A stretch of 64,000 nucleotides of DNA from Legionella sp. (GCF_031291095.1 NZ_JARLJR010000008.1); one strand, 5' to 3'; positions 1-14,600 are shown, counted from the stretch's first letter. A program made the numbers and translations. The notes: generated by a model not told the origin, from the sequence alone.

Positions 1-886
1 GATAGCGAATAATCGGTTGGGTGGTCCGTAACAGATCGGTAATGATGGGGACAAACCGTCGCTCATCAATCCATTCTTTTTCGATAATTAAAAACTCTTC
101 GTTCATTAATAAACGATTACTGTGTTTCTCACTGATTGCTAAAAATCCTTCAGTACATTGATAAACCTGTGATACTGGGCAAGCAAAGGCTTTCGTGATG
201 ATGGCTGCATCACGGGGCTCTAAAACTTCAGCTACAGCAAAGATTTTTTGTGGTTTTATTGCCACGCGATGTTTTGCTAAAGCTAATAAAACACTTGCAG
301 GTGCTGAGAGGATGGTGGGCTGTAATTGGGTAAGTCGTTCTTTATGGGTATCAAAACGTTCAAGTAAATCAAAAAAATGGAATTGGATTTTTTTACTTTT
401 ACTTAGGGTGGTGTAGAGCTGATTGTTGGCCCGTAAAAAAAAAGCAACCCGCTCCTGTTTTTTTAAGCCTTGCGGTAGGGCTTTTGCCAATAAGATTCCA
501 GCCCAGGCATCCCGTTCCTGGGAGCTAGCAAGAAACAGTCCCCGATTTCCTGAGGTTCCAGAGGAAAGGCCAACCGCAATATCCTCAATTAAGGGTGAAA
601 AATCACGTGAATTTTCCGCGCCTAAAGCAACCGCCAAGGCATGGTCTTTTTTTATATTTACCGTATTAATTTCATCAAAATGTTGCATCATTATTTTTTT
701 ATTGATGATTGGCCATTGAGTGAATGGTTTGTCTAAATAGGGCTGATAAAAAGGCGATTTCCTTAAGGTCTTTTTCACTAACTTTTTAAACCGTTTCTCC
801 TGATAGACAGATAATTGTTCGCGGTTATGAAAACGTTGGTTTAAGTATTGGGTTTTGAAATAATAATAAAGTAACCTAAGTATCAT
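1..886 (-). CDS. Adenylate-forming enzyme, F390-synthetase-related / phenylacetate-CoA ligase-like (ANL superfamily); partial, 3' end beyond the window edge
   Basis: Not in the ORF track. Translated by hand from ATG at 886-884 (ATGA overlap with the MBL stop): MILRLLYYYFKTQYLNQRFHNREQL...GLSSGTSGNRGLF...QVYQCTEGFL...ITDLLRTTQPIIRY. SSGTSG loop, YQCTEG and D..R..QPIIRY motifs are typical of the family. No in-frame stop found in the parts checked (start to ~480 and 1-180). Confidence 0.85.
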   Translation of the reverse strand, partial: MILRLLYYYFKTQYLNQRFHNREQLSVYQEKRFKKLVKKTLRKSPFYQPYLDKPFTQWPIINKKIMMQHFDEINTVNIKKDHALAVALGAENSRDFSPLIEDIAVGLSSGTSGNRGLFLASSQERDAWAGILLAKALPQGLKKQERVAFFLRANNQLYTTLSKSKKIQFHFFDLLERFDTHKERLTQLQPTILSAPASVLLALAKHRVAIKPQKIFAVAEVLEPRDAAIITKAFACPVSQVYQCTEGFLAISEKHSNRLLMNEEFLIIEKEWIDERRFVPIITDLLRTTQPIIRY

Positions 887-1710
887 GAACTTCCCTTTTT
901 AATGCGAGCACGTATGTGTTGGCAATGAGCCGGAATAATATCCAGGGCTTGGTTTTGTTGGTGCAATTGATGCAACTGCAAAATCGTGTTTTGGTACGCT
1001 TGCTTATCCTCATGGATTAAATAAGTCAGGTTACTGGGGTAAATTAATTCCTTAAAGGTTTCTTGATGCCAGCAACTATCAGCAATTAAAAAGGTTTCTT
1101 TGCCCTCAATTGATTTAAAATACAAACCGATTTGCCCTTTGGCATGCCCAGGCAAAGATATAGCAATTAATTGCCCATCATTAAATAAATCAAAGCCAGA
1201 CGTAAATGGGGATAGTTCTGCGGGCAGAGCGATTTCTTGCTTTAGAAGTACCAAGCGTTCATAGAAATCTTTGGGAAGTAAATCAGGTAAAAAACCTTTA
1301 ATTAACGCGCGTATTCCTTTTTTCTTATCGATGCCGCTGATGGCTTCAGGATGACAGATAAACTGAGCATTAGGAAAATCTTTTAACCCACCAATGTGGT
1401 CGGCATGAAAATGCGAAATAATAATAGTACGGATTTCACTTGCCTGAATGTGCTGTTCTTCCAATTGCTGTTTTAGGGATTTCTTTAAAATCACTGGGGT
1501 AAGTCGTCGGTACAGTGAAAAAGGAAATTTTTGTGTAAGTTGGAAGAAGCGATCGCTATAACCGGTATCAAATAAAATATAGCCCTGTTGTGGATGCTTG
1601 ATTAAAGCGCAAAGTGCAGGGTAGTCGCATTGTTGCATACGCCCAGATTTTAGGGTCATTCGTTCACAATGCTTGCAATAGCCGGCTTCAAATAACTGAT
1701 ATTCAATCAT
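883..1710 (-). CDS. Metallo-beta-lactamase-fold hydrolase
   Basis: HFHADH (HxHxDH), GHAKG, IADS and PAHC metal ligands; LFDTGY strand. Confidence 0.9.
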   Translation of the reverse strand: MIEYQLFEAGYCKHCERMTLKSGRMQQCDYPALCALIKHPQQGYILFDTGYSDRFFQLTQKFPFSLYRRLTPVILKKSLKQQLEEQHIQASEIRTIIISHFHADHIGGLKDFPNAQFICHPEAISGIDKKKGIRALIKGFLPDLLPKDFYERLVLLKQEIALPAELSPFTSGFDLFNDGQLIAISLPGHAKGQIGLYFKSIEGKETFLIADSCWHQETFKELIYPSNLTYLIHEDKQAYQNTILQLHQLHQQNQALDIIPAHCQHIRARIKKGSS

Positions 1711-2692
1711 GATGTTGGTACCATTTTGCGAAGCGTTCTATTCCTTGGGAAATACTAAACAATGGTCGATAGCTTAAATCGTTTTGAGCTGCTTCTATAT
1801 TTAAAGTTTGTCCCAAAGATAAAACGCCAGCACTGTATTTTGTTAAGCGAGGTTCTGAATGTATAAACGGCAAACGATAAATTTTCTCCAAACATGCAGC
1901 ATAGTTTTTGGCTAGAGCATAAGGGATAAATTTGGGCGTAAACGGCTTTTGCAGCGCGTCAAATAATTGCTTCAGTATGTGGATTAAAGTTTGGGGCTCG
2001 TCATTCGTAATGTTATATTTGTTGCCACAAAATTGGGTGTCTGCTTTAGCGGCTAAGAGTAAGCTTTCCACTACATTATCCACATAGGTAATATCAATAA
2101 GATTCTTTCCTGTACCAATAATGGGTAAAACACCTTTGCGTTCGCTTTGTAGTAGGCGGGGGAATATTGCGCGATCATAGGGACCAAAGATGGCTCGCGG
2201 GCGTAGAGTGATCACATTAAGATTTTTCTCTCGATAGGCCTTATCAATCAATGCTTCTGCCATTAACTTGGTTTTGACATAGTGATTCGCAGGTTTTTCT
2301 GGTAATGGCTCTTGTTCTTTGATGTTATGTCGTTCGCTAAAATCAAAGTAAATGCTTGGTGATGAAACATGAACTAAACGCGTTGTTTCTGCGGTGCAGT
2401 CAATGACATGCTGCGTTCCTAAAACATTAGCCTTATAAAAATCTTGATAACGTCCCCAAGGACTAGAGAGGGCGGCACAATGGAATATGGTTTGCGTCTT
2501 TTGAGGGATTACATTTTTTAGTTTTACCTTATCGTGTAAGTCCACCTTAATAAAACGAGCTCCTGCTTGCGTAAGGATTTTACCCAAGGCTTCATTGCGT
2601 CCTAAGGCGATGACCTCAATGCCTTGTTCCAGCAAACGCTGAGTTAAATTCAGTCCCAAACAACCCGTTGCCCCTGTAACTACAGAAACCAT
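1703..2692 (-). CDS. Extended SDR, NAD-dependent epimerase/3-beta-hydroxysteroid-dehydrogenase-like
   Basis: VTGATGCLG (GxxGxxG), SSPSIY, YVKTK (YxxxK), LRPRAIFGP. Preferred start is ATG 2692, 1 nt after the KAS III stop (track extends to 2725). Confidence 0.9.
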   Translation of the reverse strand: MVSVVTGATGCLGLNLTQRLLEQGIEVIALGRNEALGKILTQAGARFIKVDLHDKVKLKNVIPQKTQTIFHCAALSSPWGRYQDFYKANVLGTQHVIDCTAETTRLVHVSSPSIYFDFSERHNIKEQEPLPEKPANHYVKTKLMAEALIDKAYREKNLNVITLRPRAIFGPYDRAIFPRLLQSERKGVLPIIGTGKNLIDITYVDNVVESLLLAAKADTQFCGNKYNITNDEPQTLIHILKQLFDALQKPFTPKFIPYALAKNYAACLEKIYRLPFIHSEPRLTKYSAGVLSLGQTLNIEAAQNDLSYRPLFSISQGIERFAKWYQHHD

Positions 2693-2693
2693 T

Positions 2694-3668
2694 TTAGTAC
2701 TCCAGAATAAGTCCGCCAGCCGCAAGTCCTGCGCCAGTACCTAAAAGCAGCACTAATTGTCCGCGTTGTAATTGCTGGCTGTCAATTAGATGGCATAGTG
2801 CAGTGGGAATTGATGCAGCAATTTGATTACCATGATGGGGGTAAATGGAAACATACTTTTCTTGGGGAATATTTAGTCTTTTTTGGATGTGTTGCATGGC
2901 CAGTAAGCTGGCTTGATGAGGAATAATCCAATGAATATCGCTCAGTGAAACCTGAGCTTTGTTCAAGAGACTCTCCATCAAATTATCTAATAGTTTAGAG
3001 GCTAATTTAAAGACCTTTTTTCCTTCCATATAGAATAAGGATTGCTCCACGGTCGGACTTGGCAAGCGTGTGCCGCCTGCATCAATTTTGCATATATTTG
3101 CGCCAATACTATGAGTTTCATGATGCGCTGAAAGAATACGTTCCCTACCTTCACTTTGTTCCAAAACACAGGCCGCTGCACCATCACCAAAAATAGTGCA
3201 GGTTTCCATATCCTGCCAATTAAGTCCTACAGAAGCGATTTCGCTGGAAACAATTAAGATTCGTTTAAAACGCCCGCCTGCAAGTAAATGGGAGGCAATA
3301 TCTAGGGCGGTAATAAAACTGAGGCAGGTACTGTTTACATCAAAACAGGCAATCCCTGATGATTCTAGCCCTAGTTGTTGTTGAATTAAAGCGGCAGTGC
3401 AGGGAATAGCTTGCTCCCCTACGCCACAGGCACTGATAATTGCATCCAGATCTGTCAAGTTTATCTGAGCTTTTTCTACCGCAATACGCCCTGCTTGTGC
3501 TCCCATATAGGAGGTTGTTTCATCGTTAGCAGCAAAATGCCGTGAAATAAGGCCTGACTTTTTTTGTACACTTCCTTCAGCTAACTGAAGTTTTGCATCT
3601 AATTCGGAAGATAACACTTTATTTCTAGGTAAATAGCGACCCATTCCAATAATTTTTACGCTAGGCAT
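2694..3668 (-). CDS. 3-oxoacyl-ACP synthase III family (FabH-like condensing enzyme)
   Basis: Cys-His-Asn triad in DVNSTCLSF, IPHQAS and HGNQIAAS; IFGDGAAA; GTGAG. Confidence 0.92.
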   Translation of the reverse strand: MPSVKIIGMGRYLPRNKVLSSELDAKLQLAEGSVQKKSGLISRHFAANDETTSYMGAQAGRIAVEKAQINLTDLDAIISACGVGEQAIPCTAALIQQQLGLESSGIACFDVNSTCLSFITALDIASHLLAGGRFKRILIVSSEIASVGLNWQDMETCTIFGDGAAACVLEQSEGRERILSAHHETHSIGANICKIDAGGTRLPSPTVEQSLFYMEGKKVFKLASKLLDNLMESLLNKAQVSLSDIHWIIPHQASLLAMQHIQKRLNIPQEKYVSIYPHHGNQIAASIPTALCHLIDSQQLQRGQLVLLLGTGAGLAAGGLILEY

Positions 3669-3672
3669 TGGT

Positions 3673-4341
3673 TTAATTCCTTAAAAAATTAGCCTTGGGT
3701 GGAGGCACTTGTTGTGTAAAAAAACGATAGTCTTTAGCAAAAAACATACAGGATAGTGCATAAACGCCATAGGTAATAAATGGTGCGGCAAAAACATCGA
3801 TGCTGTAATGAATATGTCCAATGAGAACAATGCAAGCAAAAAACACACTGGAAAGAAAACAAAAATAACGAATTTTTTTGTTATCCCAAAAAAGTAACAT
3901 TAGCAAAAAAGGACCACCAACATGGCCTGAAAAAAAGAGATCCCCATCAAAAAGGAAAAAAGAAGCGAGATTTTCGGGAATGGCTAATTCATTCGTCGGA
4001 GCACCTAAATGAGTAAGACAGATAAATGCGCTGCGCACTAGAATGAACAGGGCGGAAGACTTTGTTACAAAAGGTATTTTTTCTGGGTGCAGGATGATAT
4101 AGCTTGTAAAGCCGAGCCAGAAGAATAGAGCAGCATAAACATGGATAAATGTAACGTTGTGCATGGGCAAATATTGCAGTATCAGATCATCTACTTGTTG
4201 GCCTGCTACCTGTGATGCATAGAGTCCGGCTTGATTGGCGATAATAAAACTAAAAAGCAGTAGGGAGATACCCAGCAGGGTTGTCCAAAGGAAATGGGAG
4301 TCTTGGCAGAGCTCCTTATAATTTGACCATATGGTTTTCAT
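3673..4341 (-). CDS. Sphingomyelin-synthase / PAP2_C-like integral membrane phosphotransferase
   Basis: About 6 hydrophobic helices; DLFFSGH (D3-like) and HYSIDV (D4-like) supply the His-His-Asp triad; R...T.L D2-like segment. Confidence 0.75.
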   Translation of the reverse strand: MKTIWSNYKELCQDSHFLWTTLLGISLLLFSFIIANQAGLYASQVAGQQVDDLILQYLPMHNVTFIHVYAALFFWLGFTSYIILHPEKIPFVTKSSALFILVRSAFICLTHLGAPTNELAIPENLASFFLFDGDLFFSGHVGGPFLLMLLFWDNKKIRYFCFLSSVFFACIVLIGHIHYSIDVFAAPFITYGVYALSCMFFAKDYRFFTQQVPPPKANFLRN

Positions 4342-5504
4342 TTATTTACTATCTCTTGATAAAGCGCTTCATAGCGCTCTATAGTTTGTTGAATGTCGTG
4401 TTGTTCCGCTAATTTTCTACTTGCCCTACCCATTTGATGGCTTTTTTCCGGATCAGTGAGTAGTTCAATCAAATATTTTGTGAGGGCGCTTACATCATTT
4501 TCTGCAAATAGATAACCATTTACTCCTGGGGTAACCAGTTCCGGCAGAGCCATAGCATTAACTGCCAGCAAGGGTAATCCTGATGCAATCGCTTCTAAGG
4601 CAACAATACTTTGTAACTCAACCGGGCAGGCGTTTACAAAACATTGGGCTAAACCGTGTATTTTGGGATAGTCATCATCAGTTAAATAACCGGTAAAGGT
4701 TACATGTTCTCTGAGTCCTAATATCTGCACTAGGTGTTCTAGACGACGGCGTTCTGCTCCGTGGCCTGTTAATACAAAATGAGCATCAACCTGCTGTCGG
4801 GCAGCCTGAAATGCATGCATAACCATAGATATATTTTTTTCCTGATCCAGGCGGCCGGTGTAAAGCAGGATGGGTTTTTCAGGTATGGTAAAGTGTTGGC
4901 GAATTTGTTGTGCATCCTGGCCCGGTTTAAACTTTTGTAAATCAACGCCACAAGAAATAGCATGTACTTCTTTTCTCAAGTGCGCTTTTTTGAGTAATTG
5001 TGCGGCAGTTTGAGTTGGGGTGGTTACGGCATCTACTTGAGACAACATATCAACAATAATGCGCCAGCAGGTGCGGTTAAACCAGGGTTCGAAACGCTTG
5101 GGTAGTTTTGTATAGTGGAAAAAATTTTCCGGCATAAAATGGTTTGTCGCCATCATGGGTAAGCCCATTTTCTTGCCGGCTCGATAACAAATTCCACCCA
5201 GAATAAATTTGCCCTGAATATGAATGAGGTCAGGTTTAAAGTCCTGAATTGCGTTAATCATTCCCTTCTTAATAAAAAAAGGCAAACAAACACGAAAGTT
5301 TTTATAGAGAAACACCGGCCAGGAACGCGCTCCATACAAGCGTACGCCATCGTATTCCTGGTAAGCTTGCTTTCCCGTTTTGGAGGGGCAAATGACTAAA
5401 ACTTCATGGCCTCTTTTTTGTAGCAACGAGGCGAGGCGATGTGTGAAATAGGCTCCTCCATTTAAGTCAGGAGGATAACTGTCTAATACCGTGATAATTC
5501 TCAT
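4338..5504 (-). CDS. GT4 family glycosyltransferase (monoglucosyl-diacylglycerol-synthase-like)
   Basis: DSYPPDLNGG N-terminus, YTGRLDQEKN, ELQSIVALEAIASG (Ex7E), GVNGYL. Confidence 0.9.
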   Translation of the reverse strand: MRIITVLDSYPPDLNGGAYFTHRLASLLQKRGHEVLVICPSKTGKQAYQEYDGVRLYGARSWPVFLYKNFRVCLPFFIKKGMINAIQDFKPDLIHIQGKFILGGICYRAGKKMGLPMMATNHFMPENFFHYTKLPKRFEPWFNRTCWRIIVDMLSQVDAVTTPTQTAAQLLKKAHLRKEVHAISCGVDLQKFKPGQDAQQIRQHFTIPEKPILLYTGRLDQEKNISMVMHAFQAARQQVDAHFVLTGHGAERRRLEHLVQILGLREHVTFTGYLTDDDYPKIHGLAQCFVNACPVELQSIVALEAIASGLPLLAVNAMALPELVTPGVNGYLFAENDVSALTKYLIELLTDPEKSHQMGRASRKLAEQHDIQQTIERYEALYQEIVNK

Positions 5505-5727
5505 TAATTAAGCTTAACATTGACCATGGACCTCTATTGGCTCAATGTGGTCATTAATTGAGCTTCCATAATATAGGTATTTTGTTTGCAATGCAATTAT
5601 TATTCGAGGCACCAAAAGCGAGGGAAATTTATTTTTTATACTTTTGTTTTTATTATCTGATTTTTCAATGCATTTTCTTATTAATTCGTGATAGATTAAC
5701 GGTCATAAATTTATAAGTTGCAAAGGA

Positions 5728-7224
5728 TTGTTGCCAGTGCTTGGTTTTAGATCTCGCCCAAGTGTGTTTATTGGGGTATTTACACTTTCTGTTCTGCAGG
5801 CTGGCTGTATGGTTGGGCCCAATTTTCGCTCACCACCATTACCACCAGTCAAGCAATATACTGAGTCGCCTTTGCCTGCTAAGACTGTGAAAACATCCGG
5901 AGCAGGGGGAAAAGCACAAGCTTTTATTAAGAATAAAGACATCCCTCTGTTATGGTGGGAACTTTATCAATCTCCTGAAATTAATCAATTAGTTAAGGCG
6001 GGTTTGGACAATAGCCCTACCTTGGCCTCGGCCTCAGCCGCGCTGCGTCAAGCGAGAGAAAATTGGCGTGCACAAGTTGGCAATTTGTTACTTCCCGCCA
6101 TTAATGGCTCCTTTGGCGTAGAGCGTCAACGTTACGCAACCGCGCAAATTGGTACGCCTGGTCAAAGTTCTACGTTCTCCATTTATAGTACGGCTTTTAA
6201 CGTTTCTTATGTGCTTGATGTATTCGGCGGGTCGCGACGAGAACTTGAATCGTTGCGTGCTCAGGTAGACTATCAACAATTTGAAGAAATCGCGGCACAC
6301 CTTACATTGGCTTCCAATATTGTTACCACTGCCATAAATATTGCATCTTATCAAGCGCAAATTGATGCAACCCGTCGCTTAATTAAAATCGAACAAGATT
6401 TATTGAATATTTTAAACGCTCAGTTTAATGTGGGGGCGGTTTCTCGTGCAAATGTATTGACGCAGCAAACCTTATTGGAGCAGTCTAAAGCAACCTTACC
6501 GCCATTACAAAAAAACTTATCTTTAGCGAAGCACTCTTTATCCGTGCTGGTTGGTGAATTTCCAGAGGGAGCTTTACCTAAGCTTGATTTAAATCGATTA
6601 AAATTACCTACCGAATTACCGTTAAGCATCCCTTCGATGTTGGTGCGCCAGCGCCCCGATGTGCGTGCGGCGGAGGCGCTACTGCATTCTGCTTGCGCGC
6701 AAGTCGGCGTTGCTACCGCCAATCTTTTCCCGCAGGTCTCGTTAACAGGTAATGACGGTTGGCTTAATATTTCTTGGTCCAAACTATTTACTGGTCCAAA
6801 CAATGTTTGGTTGATTGGGGCGGCTGTGGCGCAGCCATTATTTCGCGGGGGCGCTTTATTTGCCCAACGTCGAGCGGCTATCGCGGCTTTTGAGCAGGCG
6901 AAGGCTCAGTACCAACAAACTGTTTTGCAAGCGTTTCAAAATGTGGCTGATGTTTTAAGTGCTATAGAAACAGATGCACGAACATTACAAGCAGATATTC
7001 GTGCTGAAGATGCTGCACGCGACGCCTTAAAGTTGACGGTACAGCAATTTCGCCTTGGTGGCGTTAATTATATTAACTTATTAAATGCGCAACAACAGTA
7101 CCAGCAAACATTGTTAAGTCGTATCCAGGCGCAGACTTTACGTTATACCGATACAGCCGGTTTATTCCAAGCTTTAGGTGGTGGCTGGTGGCATAAACCC
7201 TGGTGTGTAAAAGAATGTCTGTAA
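5728..7224 (+). CDS. Outer membrane efflux factor lipoprotein (NodT/OprM family)
   Basis: AGC-MVGPNF lipoprotein N-terminus, DVFGGSRR, RQRPDVRAAE, ANLFPQVSL, LFQALGGGWW C-terminus; exact start uncertain. Confidence 0.93.
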   Translation: MLPVLGFRSRPSVFIGVFTLSVLQAGCMVGPNFRSPPLPPVKQYTESPLPAKTVKTSGAGGKAQAFIKNKDIPLLWWELYQSPEINQLVKAGLDNSPTLASASAALRQARENWRAQVGNLLLPAINGSFGVERQRYATAQIGTPGQSSTFSIYSTAFNVSYVLDVFGGSRRELESLRAQVDYQQFEEIAAHLTLASNIVTTAINIASYQAQIDATRRLIKIEQDLLNILNAQFNVGAVSRANVLTQQTLLEQSKATLPPLQKNLSLAKHSLSVLVGEFPEGALPKLDLNRLKLPTELPLSIPSMLVRQRPDVRAAEALLHSACAQVGVATANLFPQVSLTGNDGWLNISWSKLFTGPNNVWLIGAAVAQPLFRGGALFAQRRAAIAAFEQAKAQYQQTVLQAFQNVADVLSAIETDARTLQADIRAEDAARDALKLTVQQFRLGGVNYINLLNAQQQYQQTLLSRIQAQTLRYTDTAGLFQALGGGWWHKPWCVKECL

Positions 7225-7234
7225 GTGTAGGAGA

Positions 7235-7286
7235 CGTCATTCTGAAATGAGGCAGAGACCTTTACTTAATGGTCGTGAGGATGGCG
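7235..7286. repeat. Degenerate CGTC-type REP-like inverted repeat inside the efflux operon
   Basis: CGTCATTCTGA ... TGAGGATGGCG imperfect IR resembling the GTCATCCTGA...TCAGGATGAC family also seen at 37206. Confidence 0.4.
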
Positions 7287-7320
7287 TTTAAGATTTAGAT
7301 ACAAGTTAAGAGAGAATTTC

Positions 7321-8457
7321 TTGAAAAAGCAAATGACAATTATGTTAGTATCCTTGGCGATACTTTTCGGTTTAATTTTTGGCTGGAAAGCGTTTTCAGG
7401 ATTCATGATGAGACGATATTTTGCGAGCATGGAGAATCCGATAATTACGGTATCCACCATGAAAGCTGAAAAGTCTTTATGGCAGCCAATGATGAAGGCT
7501 GTTGGAAGTTTACGGGCTCGCGTCGGAGTGAATGTTACGACTGAACTGGCAGGCATGGTGAAAACGATTTCGTTTACCCCCGGTGCTCAAGTTGAAAAAG
7601 GCGCCCTTTTAGTGCAATTAAATGCGGATGCCGAATTGGGGCAGTTGCATTCATTACAGGCCCAAGTTGAGTTAGCTAAAATTACCTATGAACGGGATAA
7701 AGCCCAACTTAAAGTTAATGCAGTGAGCAAACAAGTAGTAGATACTGATTGGTGGAATCTTAAAAATCTGCAAGCACAGGTAGAGCAGCAAGCCGCCATT
7801 GTAGAAAAAAAGACGGTACGTGCACCATTTTCTGGGCGATTAGGGATTAATAACGTCAACCCAGGACAATATCTTAATGTTGGCGATACGGTCACTGCCT
7901 TACAGGATCTAAATATAATTTACGCTGACTTTTTCTTGCCCCAGCAATCCTTGGCGGATCTGGAACTTGGGCAAGTGGTTTCCATTGCTGTCGATACCTT
8001 TCCAGAGCAAACCTTTAAAGGAAAAATTACGACCATTCAACCTCAAGTCGATGTTAATACACGTAATGTGGAGGTCGAGGCGACTTTGTTGAACGCTCGT
8101 TTCTTATTAAAACCTGGTATGTTTGTGCATACTGCCGTAGAAGTGCAGTCCAAGCGCAGCTACATCACCTTACCTCAATCGGCAATCAGTTTTAATTCTT
8201 ATGGGGATATCGTTTATGTCGTTAAAGACAGTGGCAAAAAAGATGATAAAAACCGACCCATGCTTACGGTGCGACAGGTTTTTGTTACTTTAGGCGATAC
8301 ACGAGGGGATCAGGTTGCGGTTTTGAAAGGCATTACCGAGGGAGAAACCGTCGTAACCAGTGGGCAATTAAAGCTTAAAAATGGCAGCCGAATTACGGTG
8401 AATAACACCATCCAACCCAGTAATGAGGCGAACCCTCAGGTTACAAATAGACGCTAA
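7321..8457 (+). CDS. RND efflux periplasmic adaptor (membrane fusion protein)
   Basis: N-terminal anchor, lipoyl half-motifs (GMVKTISFTPGAQVEKGALLVQL; VRAPFSGRLG), LKPGMFV, V.LG...G. Confidence 0.93.
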   Translation: MKKQMTIMLVSLAILFGLIFGWKAFSGFMMRRYFASMENPIITVSTMKAEKSLWQPMMKAVGSLRARVGVNVTTELAGMVKTISFTPGAQVEKGALLVQLNADAELGQLHSLQAQVELAKITYERDKAQLKVNAVSKQVVDTDWWNLKNLQAQVEQQAAIVEKKTVRAPFSGRLGINNVNPGQYLNVGDTVTALQDLNIIYADFFLPQQSLADLELGQVVSIAVDTFPEQTFKGKITTIQPQVDVNTRNVEVEATLLNARFLLKPGMFVHTAVEVQSKRSYITLPQSAISFNSYGDIVYVVKDSGKKDDKNRPMLTVRQVFVTLGDTRGDQVAVLKGITEGETVVTSGQLKLKNGSRITVNNTIQPSNEANPQVTNRR

Positions 8458-8468
8458 GGATTGCATTT

Positions 8469-11400
8469 ATGGCATTTACCGATATTTTTATTAAGCGGCC
8501 TGTATTGGCTACAGTGGTTAGCTTAATGATTTTGGCAATGGGGCTGCGCTCCCTGGGGTCGTTGCCTGTAATGCAATACCCCTTTACAGAAAATGCCATT
8601 GTTACAGTCACGACGACCTATACAGGAGCCAACCCGGATGTGATCGCGGGTTTTATTACCACTCCTTTAGAAAATTCGATCGCCCAGGCCAATGGTATTG
8701 ATTATATGACCTCTACCAGTACACCGGGTACCAGTACGATTACCGTTAATTTATTACTTAACTATGATCCTTTAAAGGCATTATCGGACATTACCACCAA
8801 AGTAAATGCTGTACTTAATCAGCTGCCGAAAAACTCACAACAACCAGTAATTACGGTGTCTGTCGGGCAAACTATTGATTCGATGTATATTGGTTTTTTT
8901 AGCGATGAATTGCCGATTAATAAAGTTACCGATTATATCCTTCGCGTGGTTCAACCTAAGTTGCAGGCCGTTAATGGTGTACAGAATGCGCAAATTCTGG
9001 GAAATCAAACCTTTGCTCTACGTGCTTGGCTTGACCCCGTTAAATTAGCTGGTTTCGGGCTTTCGGCCGCAGACATTGGGGCGGCCTTGGCTAATAATGA
9101 TTTTATTTCTGCTGTGGGTCGTACGGATGGGCAGATGTTTATTCAAAACTTGACTGCATCTACCGACCTTAACGATGTTGAGCAATTTAAAAAAATGATT
9201 ATTAAGGCACAAAACGGCGCCATTATTCGTTTGGGGGATGTCGCAGATGTTGATCTTGGTGCCCAAAATTATAATTCATCGGTGAGTTTTGATGGGCAAA
9301 CTGCTGTTTATATCGGGATTATTGTTGCTCCGTCCGCTAACTTATTAACTGTAATTAATGAAATAAGGAAAATTTTTCCAACTATTCAGGCGCAATTACC
9401 TCAAGGTTTAAATGCCAATATTGTTTATGATGCGAGTTTGTTCGTTAATTCGTCAATTCATGAAGTAATTCTATCTTTGATGGAAGCCTTCATGATTGTG
9501 ACGGTTGTCATTTTTATTTTCCTTGGTTCTATTCGTTCCGTTATTATTCCCTTGGTTGCAATTCCTTTATCTATTATTGGCACCTTTTGGGTCATGCTGG
9601 CTTTAGGCTACTCCATTAATTTATTGACTTTATTGGCTTTAGTATTAGGGATTGGTCTTGTGGTGGATGATGCGATTATTGTTGTAGAGAACGTGCAGCG
9701 CCATATTGAGGAAGGACGAACTCGAATTAAAGCGGCATTACTTGGAGCAAGTGAATTAGCCAATCCGATTATCGCAATTACGGTAGTTTTGATTGCTGTT
9801 TATGCTCCTATTGGCTTTATGGGAGGATTAACGGGAGCTTTATTTACTGAGTTTGCCTTTACTTTAGCGGGGGCTGTAACCATTTCTGCGGTGGTGGCCT
9901 TAACTTTGTCGCCTATGATGTGTTCTAAATTTTTGAAAGTTGGAGATGGTGCAGCTAAAGGGCGTTTTATGACCCAAGTAGACCATTATTTTACTAAGTT
10001 AGAAAAAGCCTATTCACGTGTCTTAGTAAGAACGTTGCGTAATTTGCCTGTAGTACTCGTTTTTGCTGCGATTATTCTAGCCAGTAATTACTTTTTGTTT
10101 ACGACTTCGGCATCAGAATTAGCACCGCAAGAAGATCAGGGGGTTATTATTTCGCAAGTAACTGCCGCCGCAAACGCTTCTTTAGCTCAAACACAGCTTT
10201 ACGCGAATGCGGTCAATGCAATCTATAAAAAGCATCCAGAAACAGATCATATTTTTCAGGTGGATGGGGGGACTGGCTTAAATACGTCCATTATTGGTAT
10301 GGTTTTAAAACCTTGGGATGAGCGTAGTCGTACCTCAAATCAGCTGCAACCGTTAATCCAAAACGAGTTGAATCAAATTGCTGGAGCCAAAATAGCTGCG
10401 TTTCAATTACCATCATTGCCGGGAGGTGGGAGTGGTTTGCCAATTCAATTTGTGGTTACTACAACTGAGCCTTTTGAAAATTTAAATGAGGTAATGCAAC
10501 CGATATTAGAACAGGCACGTAGCTCTGGATTGTTTGCATACATTGACGTAGATCTCAAGATCGATCAGATACAAACGCGAATTAATTTAGATCGAGACCG
10601 AATCTCTCAATTTGGGTTAACCATGCAGGATATTGGTAATGTATTTGGTTCTGCTCTGAGTGAGGGATATATTAATTATTTTAACTTTTTGGGGCGTTCT
10701 TATCAGGTCATTCCCCAAGTGACACGGAAATCTCGTTTAAATCCAGAGCAAATATTAAATTACTACATTAGGACATCAACAGGAGAGTCGATACCTCTTT
10801 CTACCGTAGCCAGTTTGCAGCGACAAGTTGTTCCTGAATCATTAAATCATTTTCAGCAGCTTAATTCGGCAACGATTTCAGCGGTTGCATTACCCGGCGT
10901 TTCAACTGAGAAAGCTTTAAGTACGTTAGCGACCTTTGCGAATCAGAATTTACCACAAGGTTATTCCATTGATTACGCATCCCAGTCACGACAATATATT
11001 AAAGAAGGGTCCACGTTAATTGTTACGTTTTTCTTCGCGTTAATTATTATTTTCTTGGCTTTATCTGCATTATTTGAGAGTTTTCGTGATCCTTTGATCG
11101 TATTAATTAGTGTGCCTATGTCTATTTGCGGGGCTATGATTTTTGTAAGCCTTGGTGTGGGTGGTGCTACCTTGAATATTTATAGTGAGGTAGGCTTGGT
11201 AACCCTGATTGGCTTAATCAGTAAGCATGGTATTTTGATTGTGCAATTTGCCAATGAATTACAGGAAAAAGGGGAAAAGAAACTCGACGCAATTCGCGCC
11301 GCCGCCGCCATTCGTTTACGCCCAATTTTGATGACTACCGCCGCAATGGTGTTGGGGGTTATACCTTTAATTATTGCAACAGGGGCGGGAGCTCAAAGCC

Positions 11401-11552
11401 GTTATAATATTGGTTTGGTAATTGCGACGGGTATTTCGATCGGTACTTTATTTACCCTTTTTGTGGTCCCTTCAATGTATCTGTTTTTAGCTGAGGAGCA
11501 TGTGGAAAAGGCCAGAGAAGAACATTTGGAGAACGAGGAGTCGCTGGGGTAG
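8469..11552 (+). CDS. RND efflux transporter permease (AcrB/MexW/MexI-like)
   Basis: FIKRPV N-terminus; proton-relay residues VDDAIIVVEN, SKHGILIV and RLRPILMT; 1027 aa. Confidence 0.95.
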   Translation: MAFTDIFIKRPVLATVVSLMILAMGLRSLGSLPVMQYPFTENAIVTVTTTYTGANPDVIAGFITTPLENSIAQANGIDYMTSTSTPGTSTITVNLLLNYDPLKALSDITTKVNAVLNQLPKNSQQPVITVSVGQTIDSMYIGFFSDELPINKVTDYILRVVQPKLQAVNGVQNAQILGNQTFALRAWLDPVKLAGFGLSAADIGAALANNDFISAVGRTDGQMFIQNLTASTDLNDVEQFKKMIIKAQNGAIIRLGDVADVDLGAQNYNSSVSFDGQTAVYIGIIVAPSANLLTVINEIRKIFPTIQAQLPQGLNANIVYDASLFVNSSIHEVILSLMEAFMIVTVVIFIFLGSIRSVIIPLVAIPLSIIGTFWVMLALGYSINLLTLLALVLGIGLVVDDAIIVVENVQRHIEEGRTRIKAALLGASELANPIIAITVVLIAVYAPIGFMGGLTGALFTEFAFTLAGAVTISAVVALTLSPMMCSKFLKVGDGAAKGRFMTQVDHYFTKLEKAYSRVLVRTLRNLPVVLVFAAIILASNYFLFTTSASELAPQEDQGVIISQVTAAANASLAQTQLYANAVNAIYKKHPETDHIFQVDGGTGLNTSIIGMVLKPWDERSRTSNQLQPLIQNELNQIAGAKIAAFQLPSLPGGGSGLPIQFVVTTTEPFENLNEVMQPILEQARSSGLFAYIDVDLKIDQIQTRINLDRDRISQFGLTMQDIGNVFGSALSEGYINYFNFLGRSYQVIPQVTRKSRLNPEQILNYYIRTSTGESIPLSTVASLQRQVVPESLNHFQQLNSATISAVALPGVSTEKALSTLATFANQNLPQGYSIDYASQSRQYIKEGSTLIVTFFFALIIIFLALSALFESFRDPLIVLISVPMSICGAMIFVSLGVGGATLNIYSEVGLVTLIGLISKHGILIVQFANELQEKGEKKLDAIRAAAAIRLRPILMTTAAMVLGVIPLIIATGAGAQSRYNIGLVIATGISIGTLFTLFVVPSMYLFLAEEHVEKAREEHLENEESLG

Positions 11553-11669: not shown

Positions 11670-14600
11670 TTATTGCAATGCCACAATCGTTGTTTCTGCA
11701 GCTTCTGCCAATGCTTCACTCACAGGGGGCTGGGTCGGTGGAATGAATAATCCAAATCTGACAATTAATGCAGTATCCAGTTTCTGTGGTTTATCCACCG
11801 CCTCATTCATATTCTCTAAGAAGCGCTTCCTTGTCGAAGTATAAAGATTTAATGTTTCTAACAAGGATAGAAAACAGGCTTTCAGATAAGCATAACTCAA
11901 TGTATCCATATGCCTGTTTGGGGCGAGCAAGACACTTTCAAAGCGAGGTTGTTTCACTAGCGTCTTTATCTTTTCAAAACGTTTTTTGATTGATAAGGAG
12001 GCTGGCTCATCTTCCGTCATTTTCACTGGTTTTTTAATTCGTTCAGAATGTGCTTTGGGCACAGGTCCATGCGCTACATTTTCTTGAACAGTTGCCGCTG
12101 GCTCAGCGTCTGCATTAACGGACATGGGTTCATCCGCATCGTCCTGTGCATTTGTTGCTATCTCATATAAGTCATTAATTAACTCAGACTTTTCAGTTAG
12201 TGGATCTTTAAGTTTAGATTGAGGTTTTTGTACCGAACTAACTTGTTGTTCATTTTTCTTTTTCGTTGCATCGCTCAAATATCCTTTTATTTGTGCTAAA
12301 ACAACCCGAACGCGATCAAGTTGTGCGTATTCTTCATAATGCTTCCGTTCAAACTCGCCGATTTTTTCTTGCAACTGTTTTTCTATGCTAAAACTAATGT
12401 CTTTTACCGTTTTTGCCTGCGTAATGATTTGTGCTTTAAACGTGAGTAATTCTTTACGTAACTCTTTGCGATACTCTTGATCGGTATATTGCAAACCAAT
12501 ATGGCGGTTACACAGTTTCTTCAAGTGCCTATCAAAGGTTTTTGTCGTGTATTCATGAACAAAATCTTGATTTTCTTTAGCCTGGACTTTGTCGATTCCT
12601 TTAAGTTGTGCCAGTTGTTCTTTTGCGGTCTGCAGTCTCATTTCATAGGTTGATAACAGACCAAGAACGTAATGATAACTGGCAGTAATCCAGCTCTCAA
12701 TTTCAGTAAATTCAGGATCGTACGCATTAAGTGGTTCACTACATACTTTATCTAGTAGATGCTGGTCTTCATAAGTGCTTACATCGATGCTGACTTTCTT
12801 TGTATCGCGAAACTGAGCCAAGACGGGCAAGTTTTTCTTATATTGATCTTGCAGTCCCTTAACGCACTCCTCAAAGGTAAATGGATGGACGCTAATGGGT
12901 TGTAACGTTGACATGAGATCAGGATGTGCGTAGCGCTTATACTCTTGAACATACATGTATAAGGTTTCCAGGTCGGCATGCTCTTCTTTTACTCGTTCAA
13001 TATTCTTTTGAGCCTTGGTAATTTTTTTATCGAGAATATTCGTACGCTCTTCTAATGGCTTTTTATCGCAGATTAATGCAACATGCACTTCAGAGGGTAG
13101 GTCAAGAGCCTCTAAGAAGCCTTTATAAAATTCATTCGTGATGCGTCTTAATGGTTCGGAGAGACTCCCGGGAGCTAATCCAAGTTTTGTTTCCCAATGA
13201 TCTGCCTCAAGCAGCATAGGAGTAAATATTCCAGGTCTAATCTTATCTATATTATTAAGTGCCGCATCATGTGCTGTGGTGGTAAATTCATTGAGTTTTT
13301 GCATCAACTCTCTGTAAAGTAATAACATCTGCGGTGACTGTAGAAAAAGTTTAAAATAAGAATGCGAATTTTTAATCATTGCTTCTATAGTCAGTGTTGC
13401 TTGTTTGGCATTCTTGTAGAGGGTATTCAGTTCTTCAGTAGACTGATAATTCTTATTTTTTAGTGATCTAATGTGATTTGGACCAATATAAAAAGCATTA
13501 AGTGCAAACCACACCGAATTTTGTTGTACTGTTCCAGGTACGGGAATTTGCTCTGGTGCTGTTTGATATGCAAAAGAATGTCCCTGAATAACTGCATAAA
13601 GATTTTGAGCTTTACTGACTAACTCTCGAGTAATAAAACTATAATGAGGATCTGTAGTCAGTCGTTCACTGAGCTTAATGATTTCGTTGATATGGCCATA
13701 AGCTTGTAACAGCGTGCTAACATAATTCCATTTCCATAACTTGGCCATACTCTCTTCACCAATCGCGGAATAAGGGCGATGAAGATTGTAATCGTTTAAA
13801 TTTTCTAATTCATGGGCAATCCCTTCAATGTGAAATAGACAATTATAGATATCTTTTATCGCGCGAACCTGCATGCTCTGGGCTAGCTGCTGGTAAGGAT
13901 CCTCCATTTCAGGATAAGGAACACCTTTGGCTTTGGGAACTAATTGCTTGCGCATGGCTTCATTAAAGAGTGCCTGAATGCCATATAGCGCCGATCTAAA
14001 TTCTGCGATGCCTTTAGAAATGTTCGTGTCTTTGAGAAGACGATAGGCTCTTTCTCCTTGCTTCAGGTTTAAACTGAGCGAGGCGGCTTCATTTTCTTTA
14101 ACAAGTTTTTCTTGAGCAATACTAATATATTGTTGATTTTTATGATGCCAATCCATACTCACACTAGCAAAATAAGTTTCAAAATGCTCGTCTAGGACTT
14201 CGAAAAAGTCAACTGCAGGTATTGTTGCAGCGGCAATTTTTTTCTTCGATAACGCGTCTGCTAAGAATTTATCAAACGTTAGAATACTTTTCTTGCTGGC
14301 CTCGGGGGCGGCGCAAACAACATAAGCTTGAAAGACGTTATATAAATTGCGGCATTGAGTTTTGACTTGATCGTTTAATGCGTCAATATTTTGCGCTGAA
14401 CCTTTGATATTATGGGCTCTTAGAAGGTCTAGAAATTCTGTTTCAGTAGCGGTTTTTTCCTGTGCCAAACGCATAAATTGTTGCTTCTTTTGTCGCCAGG
14501 TCTTTTCAATTAGAACAAAATGTTTTTCGGCATCTTTGAATAAACCAGCGACAGGTAGGTCGGTTACCACAACAGGATTATTCGATAATAAATCAACTAG

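Follow-up and report, generated by a model that had tools for sequence, protein, structure and literature searches.

What does an enzyme of the sphingomyelin synthase (SMS) type, a class regarded as belonging to eukaryotic sphingolipid metabolism, do in a bacterium such as Legionella? The question is raised by a stretch of 64,000 nucleotides from Legionella sp. (GCF_031291095.1 NZ_JARLJR010000008.1), hereafter the window, in which a gene at positions 3673-4341 encodes a protein of the PAP2_C family. We find that the conserved partner of this gene is a glycosyltransferase (GT) and that the two enzymes constitute a widespread two-enzyme module, whose representatives in the window are the following:

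3673..4341, minus strand: predicted SMS-type (PAP2_C) lipid phosphotransferase/phosphodiesterase with six transmembrane (TM) helices, 222 amino acids; open reading frame (ORF) with ATG start, PF14360, AlphaFold2 (AF2) model, SMSr by profile and fold.
4338..5504, minus strand: GT4 glycosyltransferase, 388 amino acids, Pfam Glycos_transf_1 and Glyco_transf_4; 4 nt are shared between its stop and the start of PAP2_C.

When a single genome of each species was scanned, at least 589 species proved to contain a PAP2_C relative; for the analysis of gene neighbourhoods, we used the best 80 of these loci together with one L. pneumophila locus (81 in total). No more than 4 kb separate PAP2_C from a GT2 or GT4 gene in 67 of the 81 loci, and in 35 of the 81 this gene is encoded on the same strand at a distance of at most 150 nt. 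The density of GT genes amounts to 0.32 genes per kb at 0-1 kb from PAP2_C and to zero over 357 kb at 4-7 kb. Unbiased clustering of the neighbouring ORFs likewise yields GTs as the top cluster (68 loci), with VTT/DedA proteins next (50 loci); other clusters comprise an alpha/beta hydrolase in 16 loci and ECF-sigma/MacAB-type genes in 10-20 loci. All gammaproteobacterial loci have GT4 next to PAP2_C, the pair of Zooshikella stands by itself, and GT2-PAP2_C fusions are known in both orders, one of them with a GT21-like lipid GT domain. We know of no such coupling or fusion to GTs among the eukaryotic SMS enzymes. A pair that is this widespread and sometimes even fused indicates glycolipid chemistry. 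As for the acceptor, the GT4 partners are closest, at scores below the cut-offs, to monoglucosyl-diacylglycerol (MGlcDAG) synthase and GlcNAc-PG synthase: The GT4 enzyme from the window aligns over its full length with NF049988 (MGlcDAG synthase Mgs) at 120 bits, below the cut-off of 400, and homologs with 45-50% identity carry the JGI name 1,2-diacylglycerol 3-alpha-glucosyltransferase, which is an automatic label only. PAP2_C is again present in two of the four examined contexts of these GT4 homologs. Upstream of the GT4 gene, inspection by eye revealed no convincing Pho box in 5505-5727, and a promoter/terminator scan performed no better than on shuffled sequences.

A preliminary description of the PAP2_C gene had recognized the SMS motifs D3 and D4 with an intact catalytic triad, had likened the protein to sphingomyelin and inositol phosphorylceramide synthases, and had proposed to compare the scores of the two Pfam families. 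This comparison turned out in favour of PAP2_C: PF14360 is the single Pfam match of the ORF (E 2.5e-8, 34.8 bits; gathering score 27), whereas PF01569 (PAP2) gives no match at E≤0.1 and misses the gene in a whole-genome scan as well. A genome-wide scan with PF14360 identified the ORF as the sole PAP2_C gene above the cut-off (37.6 bits), and no NCBIfam model matches the protein. Its nearest relative, from L. saoudiensis, is 90% identical, in agreement with the assignment of the DNA to Legionella. Public databases list homologs as ‘phosphatase PAP2-related protein’, ‘sphingomyelin synthase-like domain-containing protein’ or ‘sphingomyelin synthase family protein’, so that the assignment of the domain as such is already public. 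The searchable literature yielded no experimental study of the family, no characterization of PAP2_C proteins (PF14360) from bacteria or of a GT-PAP2_C module, and nothing that joins Patescibacteria with sphingomyelin synthase.

For the examination of the active site, we aligned 35 sequences of the PAP2_C family (alignment A1) and derived all calls of invariant columns from it. The invariant residues include Y41, D52, K94, R103, T110, H111, D134, F136, F137, S138, H140, G142, P144, H178, Y179, S180, I181, D182 and V183, among others, and hence the complete His-His-Asp triad H140, H178 and D182. The four SMS motif blocks, of which D3 and D4 were read from the DNA, are located as follows:

4165..4194, minus strand: D1-like block VDDLILQYLP, residues 50-59, in periplasmic loop 1; the invariant D52 pairs with the Asp of SMSr PLPDIFLD.
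3997..4035, minus strand: D2-like block RSAFICLTHLGAP, residues 103-115; R103, T110 and H111 are invariant; aligns with SMSr LLRCFTMFVTSLSVPG.
3916..3945, minus strand: D3 motif GDLFFSGHVG, residues 133-142; aligns with SMSr GDYMFSGHT, D134 and H140 corresponding to SMSr D295 and H301.
3793..3816, minus strand: D4 motif HIHYSIDV, residues 176-183; aligns with SMSr HEHYSIDV, H178 and D182 corresponding to SMSr H344 and D348.

The blocks differ in how closely they follow the SMS consensus. In D1, D52 is aligned with the Asp of PLPD and the prolines are missing; in D2 (R-x6-T-x2-P-x-P), R103-x6-T110 is kept and the prolines are displaced by one residue, while the adjacent H111 is specific to the family and is replaced by Ser in SMSr. 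D3 (C-G-D-x3-S-G-H-T) lacks the leading Cys, with G133, D134, S138, G139 and H140 being invariant or nearly so; after the His, members of the Patescibacteria clade have Thr and those of the gamma clade have Val. D4 (H-Y-T-x-D-V) takes the form HYSIDV, which is invariant and the same as in human SMSr. The motif reading of the preliminary description is therefore borne out at the level of the DNA and of the family, and the agreement goes far beyond what chance would produce.

The relation to SMSr extends from motifs to the fold. A single-sequence phmmer search of the PAP2_C protein against the PDB gave no match; with the A1 profile, human SMSr (8IJQ) was the sole significant match (E 1.4e-4, residues 29-194), with all four SMS motif blocks aligned, and the search returned no PgpB- or LPP-type chain and no Aur1. 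The AF2 model built on A1 (pLDDT 87.6, pTM 0.86) has SMSr as its best Foldseek match (prob 1.00, TMq 0.58), with LPP1, acid phosphatases and PgpB at lower ranks (TMq 0.3-0.44) and Aur1 at rank 42 (E 1.3). Catalysis by SMSr depends on a pentad of E205, H301, D295, H344 and D348, of which D295 has been proposed to serve one of the two sequential catalytic steps and is missing from Aur1 as well as from the compared canonical LPT enzymes LpxE, G6PC1 and PgpB (PMC13133130). Four of these five residues are invariant according to the profile alignment and A1: D295, H301, H344 and D348 correspond to D134, H140, H178 and D182. SMSr E205 falls into an insert of the alignment; the closest candidate counterpart, at position 62, varies between D and N. 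The PAP2_C protein thus shares with SMSr/SAMD8 and SMS1/SMS2 the Pfam family, a six-TM core and a non-cytoplasmic catalytic site, and its blocks D1-D4 can be aligned with those of SMSr. Unlike SMSr, it is about half the size, has no SAM domain or long N-terminus, is only about 19% identical, lacks a counterpart of E205, carries the additional invariant H111 and, in the gamma clade, has Val for Thr after the D3 His; moreover, it is genetically coupled or fused to GTs, with no evident ceramide pathway. Aur1, the fungal and protozoan inositol phosphorylceramide (IPC) synthase (9VJ4), is likewise a headgroup transferase of the LPT fold with a His-His-Asp triad, but it is distant in the Foldseek ranking, is missed by the profile and has no SMS-specific Asp (PMC13133130).

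With PgpB, BcrC, LpxE and LPP1, the protein has in common the superfamily fold and the C2/C3-type His-His-Asp triad (Foldseek TMq 0.40-0.44). The canonical PAP2 enzyme of the same genome, encoded on contig C33 (C33:16481-16840), displays the C1, C2 and C3 motifs KVALSRARP, PSGH and SRVLLYYHYLSD, whereas the PAP2_C protein has neither the C1 motif KxxxxxxRP nor the SR of C3. In combination with the missing PF01569 match, this implies a phosphodiester as substrate, not a monoester or pyrophosphate. Because the evidence from Pfam, family profile, Foldseek and pentad, together with the missing C1 motif, is in agreement, we assign the protein to the SMS-type and not to the PgpB-type branch, in line with the preliminary description.

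The orientation of the protein in the membrane follows from charge and from the fusions. Across A1, the N-terminus has a net charge of +2.7 and loops 2, 4 and the C-terminus are positive, while loops 1 and 3, which carry D52, H111, D134 and H140, are at about -2 (loop 1: -2.0). In the fusion proteins, GT2 follows the C-terminus (P0149) or precedes the N-terminus (P0193, P0222), with hydrophilic linkers that contain no TM helix. Nucleotide-sugar glycosyltransferases act in the cytoplasm. Consequently, both termini are cytoplasmic and the catalytic loops extracytoplasmic, as in SMS: The protein spans the membrane with six helices and presents D52, D134, H140, H178 and D182 on the periplasmic face.

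How is the family distributed? A word-index search retrieved 962 homologous proteins, and an exhaustive search at E≤0.001 retrieved 813 cluster representatives (50% identity). The majority belong to Patescibacteria, where PAP2_C is usually accompanied by a DedA/VTT protein. Legionella, Zooshikella and a Cellvibrionaceae metagenome-assembled genome (MAG) form a separate clade (support 100/98) that is always paired with GT4. Among Legionellales, 20 of the 121 sampled genomes contain the gene, one copy being a pseudogene, which makes it an accessory gene. CdsA was found in none of 35 module-bearing Patescibacteria genomes, which are small MAGs of unknown completeness, versus 10 of 10 bacterial controls. 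Any diacylglycerol (DAG) for the GTs of these Patescibacteria must consequently come from cleaved, scavenged phospholipid.

From these observations we arrive at a mechanism for which we see about an even chance: The association of the two enzymes is observed, and the inferred chemistry is the conversion of a phospholipid into a glycolipid of the glycosyl-DAG type via feeding of DAG. Like SMS and SMSr, the PAP2_C enzyme would attack the phosphodiester of a glycerophospholipid (phosphatidylethanolamine, phosphatidylglycerol or phosphatidylcholine) in the outer leaflet of the inner membrane and thereby liberate DAG; the headgroup would be passed either to water, in the manner of a phospholipase C, or to the hydroxyl of a lipid or glycolipid. 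The DAG could then flip spontaneously, without a flippase, and be glycosylated by the cytoplasmic, translationally coupled GT4, DAG being the natural acceptor for an MGS-like GT4. In Patescibacteria, this cleavage would be the sole encoded source of DAG. Release of DAG is the first half shared by every reaction of the SMS family. A phospholipase C activity that yields DAG has been published for SMSr and SMS2 (PMC7988496, PMC11663969, PMC12594915), and in this mode it is all that these enzymes do. There is also a functional precedent in PlcP-Agt, a lipid remodelling pair that responds to phosphate stress in SAR11, rhizobia, Pseudomonas and Burkholderia (PMC4796936, PMC8528852, PMC13691135): Here, too, a two-gene module would cleave phospholipid to DAG, which an adjacent GT4 converts into glycosyl-DAG. 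The likeness is a functional one, deduced by us; PlcP is a metallophosphoesterase unrelated to PAP2_C, and the partner of the GT4 in our module is not a Metallophos protein.

In Legionella, the pair is followed by four further genes on the minus strand, to which we refer as the quartet:

2694..3668, minus strand: ketoacyl synthase III (KAS III; FabH-like, PRK07204), first quartet gene, 4-nt gap after PAP2_C; NF005541, 515 bits against a cut-off of 402.
1703..2725, minus strand: extended short-chain dehydrogenase/reductase (SDR), OleD / 3-beta-HSD / thioester-reductase-like; Pfam Epimerase, 3Beta_HSD and NAD_binding_4; NF042423 and NF042422 at 209-217 bits, below 580.
883..1710, minus strand: hydrolase of the metallo-beta-lactamase (MBL) fold, lactonase-like; Lactamase_B; AttM-type lactonase model at 82 bits, below its cut-off.
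2..886, minus strand: F390-synthetase-related adenylate-forming enzyme, cut by the window edge; TIGR02304, 366 bits against a cut-off of 252 (full gene at G000:C134:16017-17249).

The window, L. saoudiensis, L. quateirensis and the Cellvibrionaceae MAG have quartet and pair in one operon. L. pneumophila and others carry the quartet in divergent orientation to the pair, and the two are not linked in Zooshikella and in two Legionella genomes. Scored by the marker TIGR02304 in 120 Legionellales genomes, the quartet is present in 34: in 18 of 19 PAP2_C-positive versus 16 of 101 negative genomes (Fisher p 3e-11, uncorrected for phylogeny), and the one positive genome that lacks it is the genome in which PAP2_C is a pseudogene. 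A 109-aa remnant of GT4 directly upstream of an intact KAS III quartet in a genome without PAP2_C (G041, L101:4933-5262) shows that the six-gene operon can lose the pair. Within the Legionellales clade, the GT4-PAP2_C pair therefore behaves like an optional supplement of the quartet. As a whole, the family is independent of the quartet, as seen in Patescibacteria and Mesorhizobium, and physical linkage is dispensable, as seen in Zooshikella. The preliminary description had connected the enzyme with the product of this operon: The nesting of PAP2_C in quartet-bearing Legionellales lends this indirect support, while the conserved partner proved to be the upstream GT4 and not the KAS III genes. 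Given that the Legionella pair is tied to the quartet, its final product probably also involves the lipid of the quartet.

The composition of the quartet parallels the logic of OleA/OleD/OleB/OleC: a condensing enzyme, an SDR similar to 2-alkyl-3-oxoalkanoate reductase, a lactonase-like hydrolase and an adenylate-forming enzyme. We rejected an identity of this operon with the surfactant locus (bbc) of L. pneumophila, which has a different gene content without GT4, PAP2_C and MBL; the surfactant/legionellol cluster corresponds to lpg2225-2234 (PMC5640695). An efflux operon of the resistance-nodulation-division (RND) type, consisting of outer-membrane factor, membrane-fusion protein and AcrB-type pump, occupies 5728-11552 (plus strand) of the window and is divergent from GT4; in two Legionella genomes that possess the quartet only (L102, L103), an RND efflux operon is directly divergent from KAS III. 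The neighbourhood of quartet and efflux is thus conserved, with GT4-PAP2_C as an indel between them, and the pump may export the product of the quartet. On a metagenome contig (L099:1-326), a 1151-aa fusion of a major facilitator superfamily (MFS) transporter, acyltransferase and AMP-binding domain, reminiscent of LplT/Aas lysophospholipid recycling, is encoded directly upstream of a complete cluster of KAS III, SDR, MBL, adenylase, GT4 and PAP2_C.

Several observations weigh against a pure supply of DAG. It predicts independence from the quartet, yet in Legionellales an intact pair never occurs without it. DAG is not established as acceptor of the GT4, whose scores fall well short of the equivalog cut-offs (120 bits, where 400 are required). 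SMSr E205 finds no conserved equivalent in the family, and H111 is invariant in addition. The frequent DedA/VTT neighbour would be better explained by a glycolipid acceptor that is flipped. Finally, no PlcP-type enzyme replaces PAP2_C beside the close GT4 homologs in the four contexts examined, so that a non-orthologous displacement of PAP2_C by PlcP was not seen.

Part of these observations is accommodated by the alternative that survives best, although we consider it rather unlikely: PAP2_C may be a headgroup transferase that passes phosphoethanolamine, phosphoglycerol or phosphocholine to the sugar of the glycolipid made by GT4 or, in Legionella, to a hydroxylated lipid of the quartet. This widens the idea of the preliminary description, a transfer of phosphocholine or phosphoethanolamine to the operon product. 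A transfer of this kind would yield a phospho(glyco)lipid, and the by-product DAG would re-enter the GT step, which would render the system a non-homologous analogue of YpfP-LtaA-LtaS. In favour of a transferase, the SMS motifs are kept, D1 and D2 in part, and with them D134, the equivalent of SMSr D295; the GT is cytoplasmic and PAP2_C extracytoplasmic, with DedA/VTT as candidate flippase in 50 of 81 loci; and in Legionellales the pair is nested within the distribution of the quartet, with which it shares one operon in the window. The type I lipoteichoic acid (LTA) pathway YpfP/UgtP-LtaA-LtaS has the same layout as GT, DedA/VTT and PAP2_C of Patescibacteria, namely a cytoplasmic glycolipid GT, a flippase and a headgroup enzyme on the outer face that releases DAG; LtaS belongs to the sulfatase family and LtaA to the MFS, so that the parallel is one of pure analogy without homology. 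LtaS/sulfatase-family proteins are rare in Patescibacteria that bear the module (3 of 35 genomes), a figure that comes from small MAGs and has no baseline. On the other hand, the minimal gammaproteobacterial module of Legionella and Zooshikella has no gene for a flippase, and relatives in the SMS family also act as plain phospholipases C. Since a transfer would still free DAG that the GT recycles, this alternative and the DAG-feeding mechanism share their core.

An ordinary PAP2-like phosphatase of lipid phosphates or pyrophosphates (phosphatidate, undecaprenyl-PP or lipid A) is in our view improbable. This explanation would trace the proximity of DedA/VTT, ECF-sigma and MacAB genes in Patescibacteria to recycling of undecaprenyl phosphate and envelope stress: DedA/UptA-like neighbours are indeed frequent, ECF-sigma and MacAB-type genes are found nearby in 10-20 loci, the superfamily fold and His-His-Asp triad are common to phosphatases and SMS, the Legionella genome has no BacA/UppP homolog (PF02673), and NCBI names relatives ‘phosphatase PAP2-related protein’. 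However, the absence of KxxxxxxRP and of a PF01569 match contrasts with the PAP2 enzyme on contig C33, which has all three motifs and presumably performs undecaprenyl-PP dephosphorylation in this genome. With 20 of 121 Legionellales genomes, the gene cannot encode a housekeeping enzyme, and a phosphatase leaves the GT fusions unexplained. Moreover, an NC10 MAG already possesses a fusion of a DedA/UptA-like domain with a SepP-like PAP2 undecaprenyl-diphosphatase domain (L035:5565-6953), directly followed by a separate PAP2_C gene with which it overlaps.

Very improbable is a genuine synthase of sphingomyelin, ceramide phosphoethanolamine or IPC that acts on a bacterial ceramide-like lipid, despite the SMS motifs and SMSr as closest relative. 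The preliminary description had pointed out that no serine palmitoyltransferase (SPT) is visible in the operon and that the acceptor is perhaps not a true ceramide. This holds for the whole genome, in which no protein reaches the cut-off of any of three NCBIfam SPT models; the best-scoring protein (332 bits versus 640) has a firm assignment as Kbl. A source of a sphingoid-like base could be the cluster of co-directional genes at C7:18489-25875, which comprises a fatty acyl-AMP ligase (FAAL, 608 aa), a fusion of acyl carrier protein (ACP) and aminoketone synthase (495 aa), an SDR (272 aa), a Capsule_synth protein (409 aa), a fatty-acid hydroxylase (192 aa) and a further 379-aa protein; judging by its gene content, it could make a sphingoid-base-like or amino-lipid product. 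Among the 120 scored genomes of the order, only 2 contain true orthologs (≥57% identity), and homologs of the C7 synthase do not track PAP2_C (8 of 19 positive versus 21 of 101 negative genomes, p 0.08, likewise uncorrected for phylogeny); L. pneumophila-like genomes have PAP2_C and no C7-type synthase. In two Legionella genomes (G057, G120), a pair of FAAL and ACP-α-oxoamine synthase (ACP-AOS) is situated about 5 kb from PAP2_C, but genes on the opposite strand and unrelated genes lie between them. We therefore rejected a tie between PAP2_C and the C7 cluster, as the co-occurrence is not significant and the proximity in G057 and G120 is interrupted. A dependence on true ceramide is unlikely because no SPT cut-off is reached and the occurrence of the C7-type synthase does not follow that of PAP2_C; furthermore, most members of the family are found in Patescibacteria, with CdsA absent in the 35 tested genomes, and their conserved partner is a GT. 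A second aminoketone synthase (412 aa) is encoded beside a 968-aa FAAL-ACP protein at C88:12970-17855; by eye, the C-terminal part of the latter and the following 245-aa gene resemble the sulfolactate pathway, which might indicate a sulfonolipid-like pathway.

Least credible of all is an acquired eukaryote-like gene for a translocated effector against host sphingolipids: Legionella has many eukaryote-like, lipid-directed effectors, and the window contains a 1856-aa ORF with internal repeats (11670-17240, minus strand) that has been called SdhA-like, but the PAP2_C protein is an integral six-TM protein that is translationally coupled to bacterial biosynthetic genes, it falls into the gammaproteobacterial clade of Legionella, Zooshikella and Cellvibrionaceae (100/98), and members of the family come overwhelmingly from bacteria. 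Two published mentions of PAP2 in Legionella concern other proteins: The discussion in the SidL paper refers to soluble MCF1-SHE domains, and the PAP2 of the LetS paper is lpg0920 PgpB.

What emerges is a half-sized bacterial branch of the SMS type that occurs in at least 589 species genomes, is paired with GTs and comes without a ceramide pathway. Tentatively, and as a proposal that may well prove wrong, we suggest that GT-PAP2_C, with or without DedA, is an undescribed and widespread route from phospholipid to glycolipid or phosphoglycolipid: Patescibacteria would use it to turn scavenged host phospholipid into envelope lipids of their own, the SMS-like enzyme being a non-homologous counterpart of LtaS or PlcP, and in Legionella the pair would tailor the Ole-like lipid of the quartet. 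Taken by itself, the Legionella gene is of moderate interest; it would gain interest if the module explains the lipid remodelling of Patescibacteria. If the proposal is true, the module would represent a new type of enzyme for bacterial membrane remodelling and an accessory envelope-lipid pathway in about one sixth of Legionellales genomes, L. pneumophila included, and it would provide a testable answer to how Patescibacteria that lack CdsA (35 of 35 tested) build distinct membranes.

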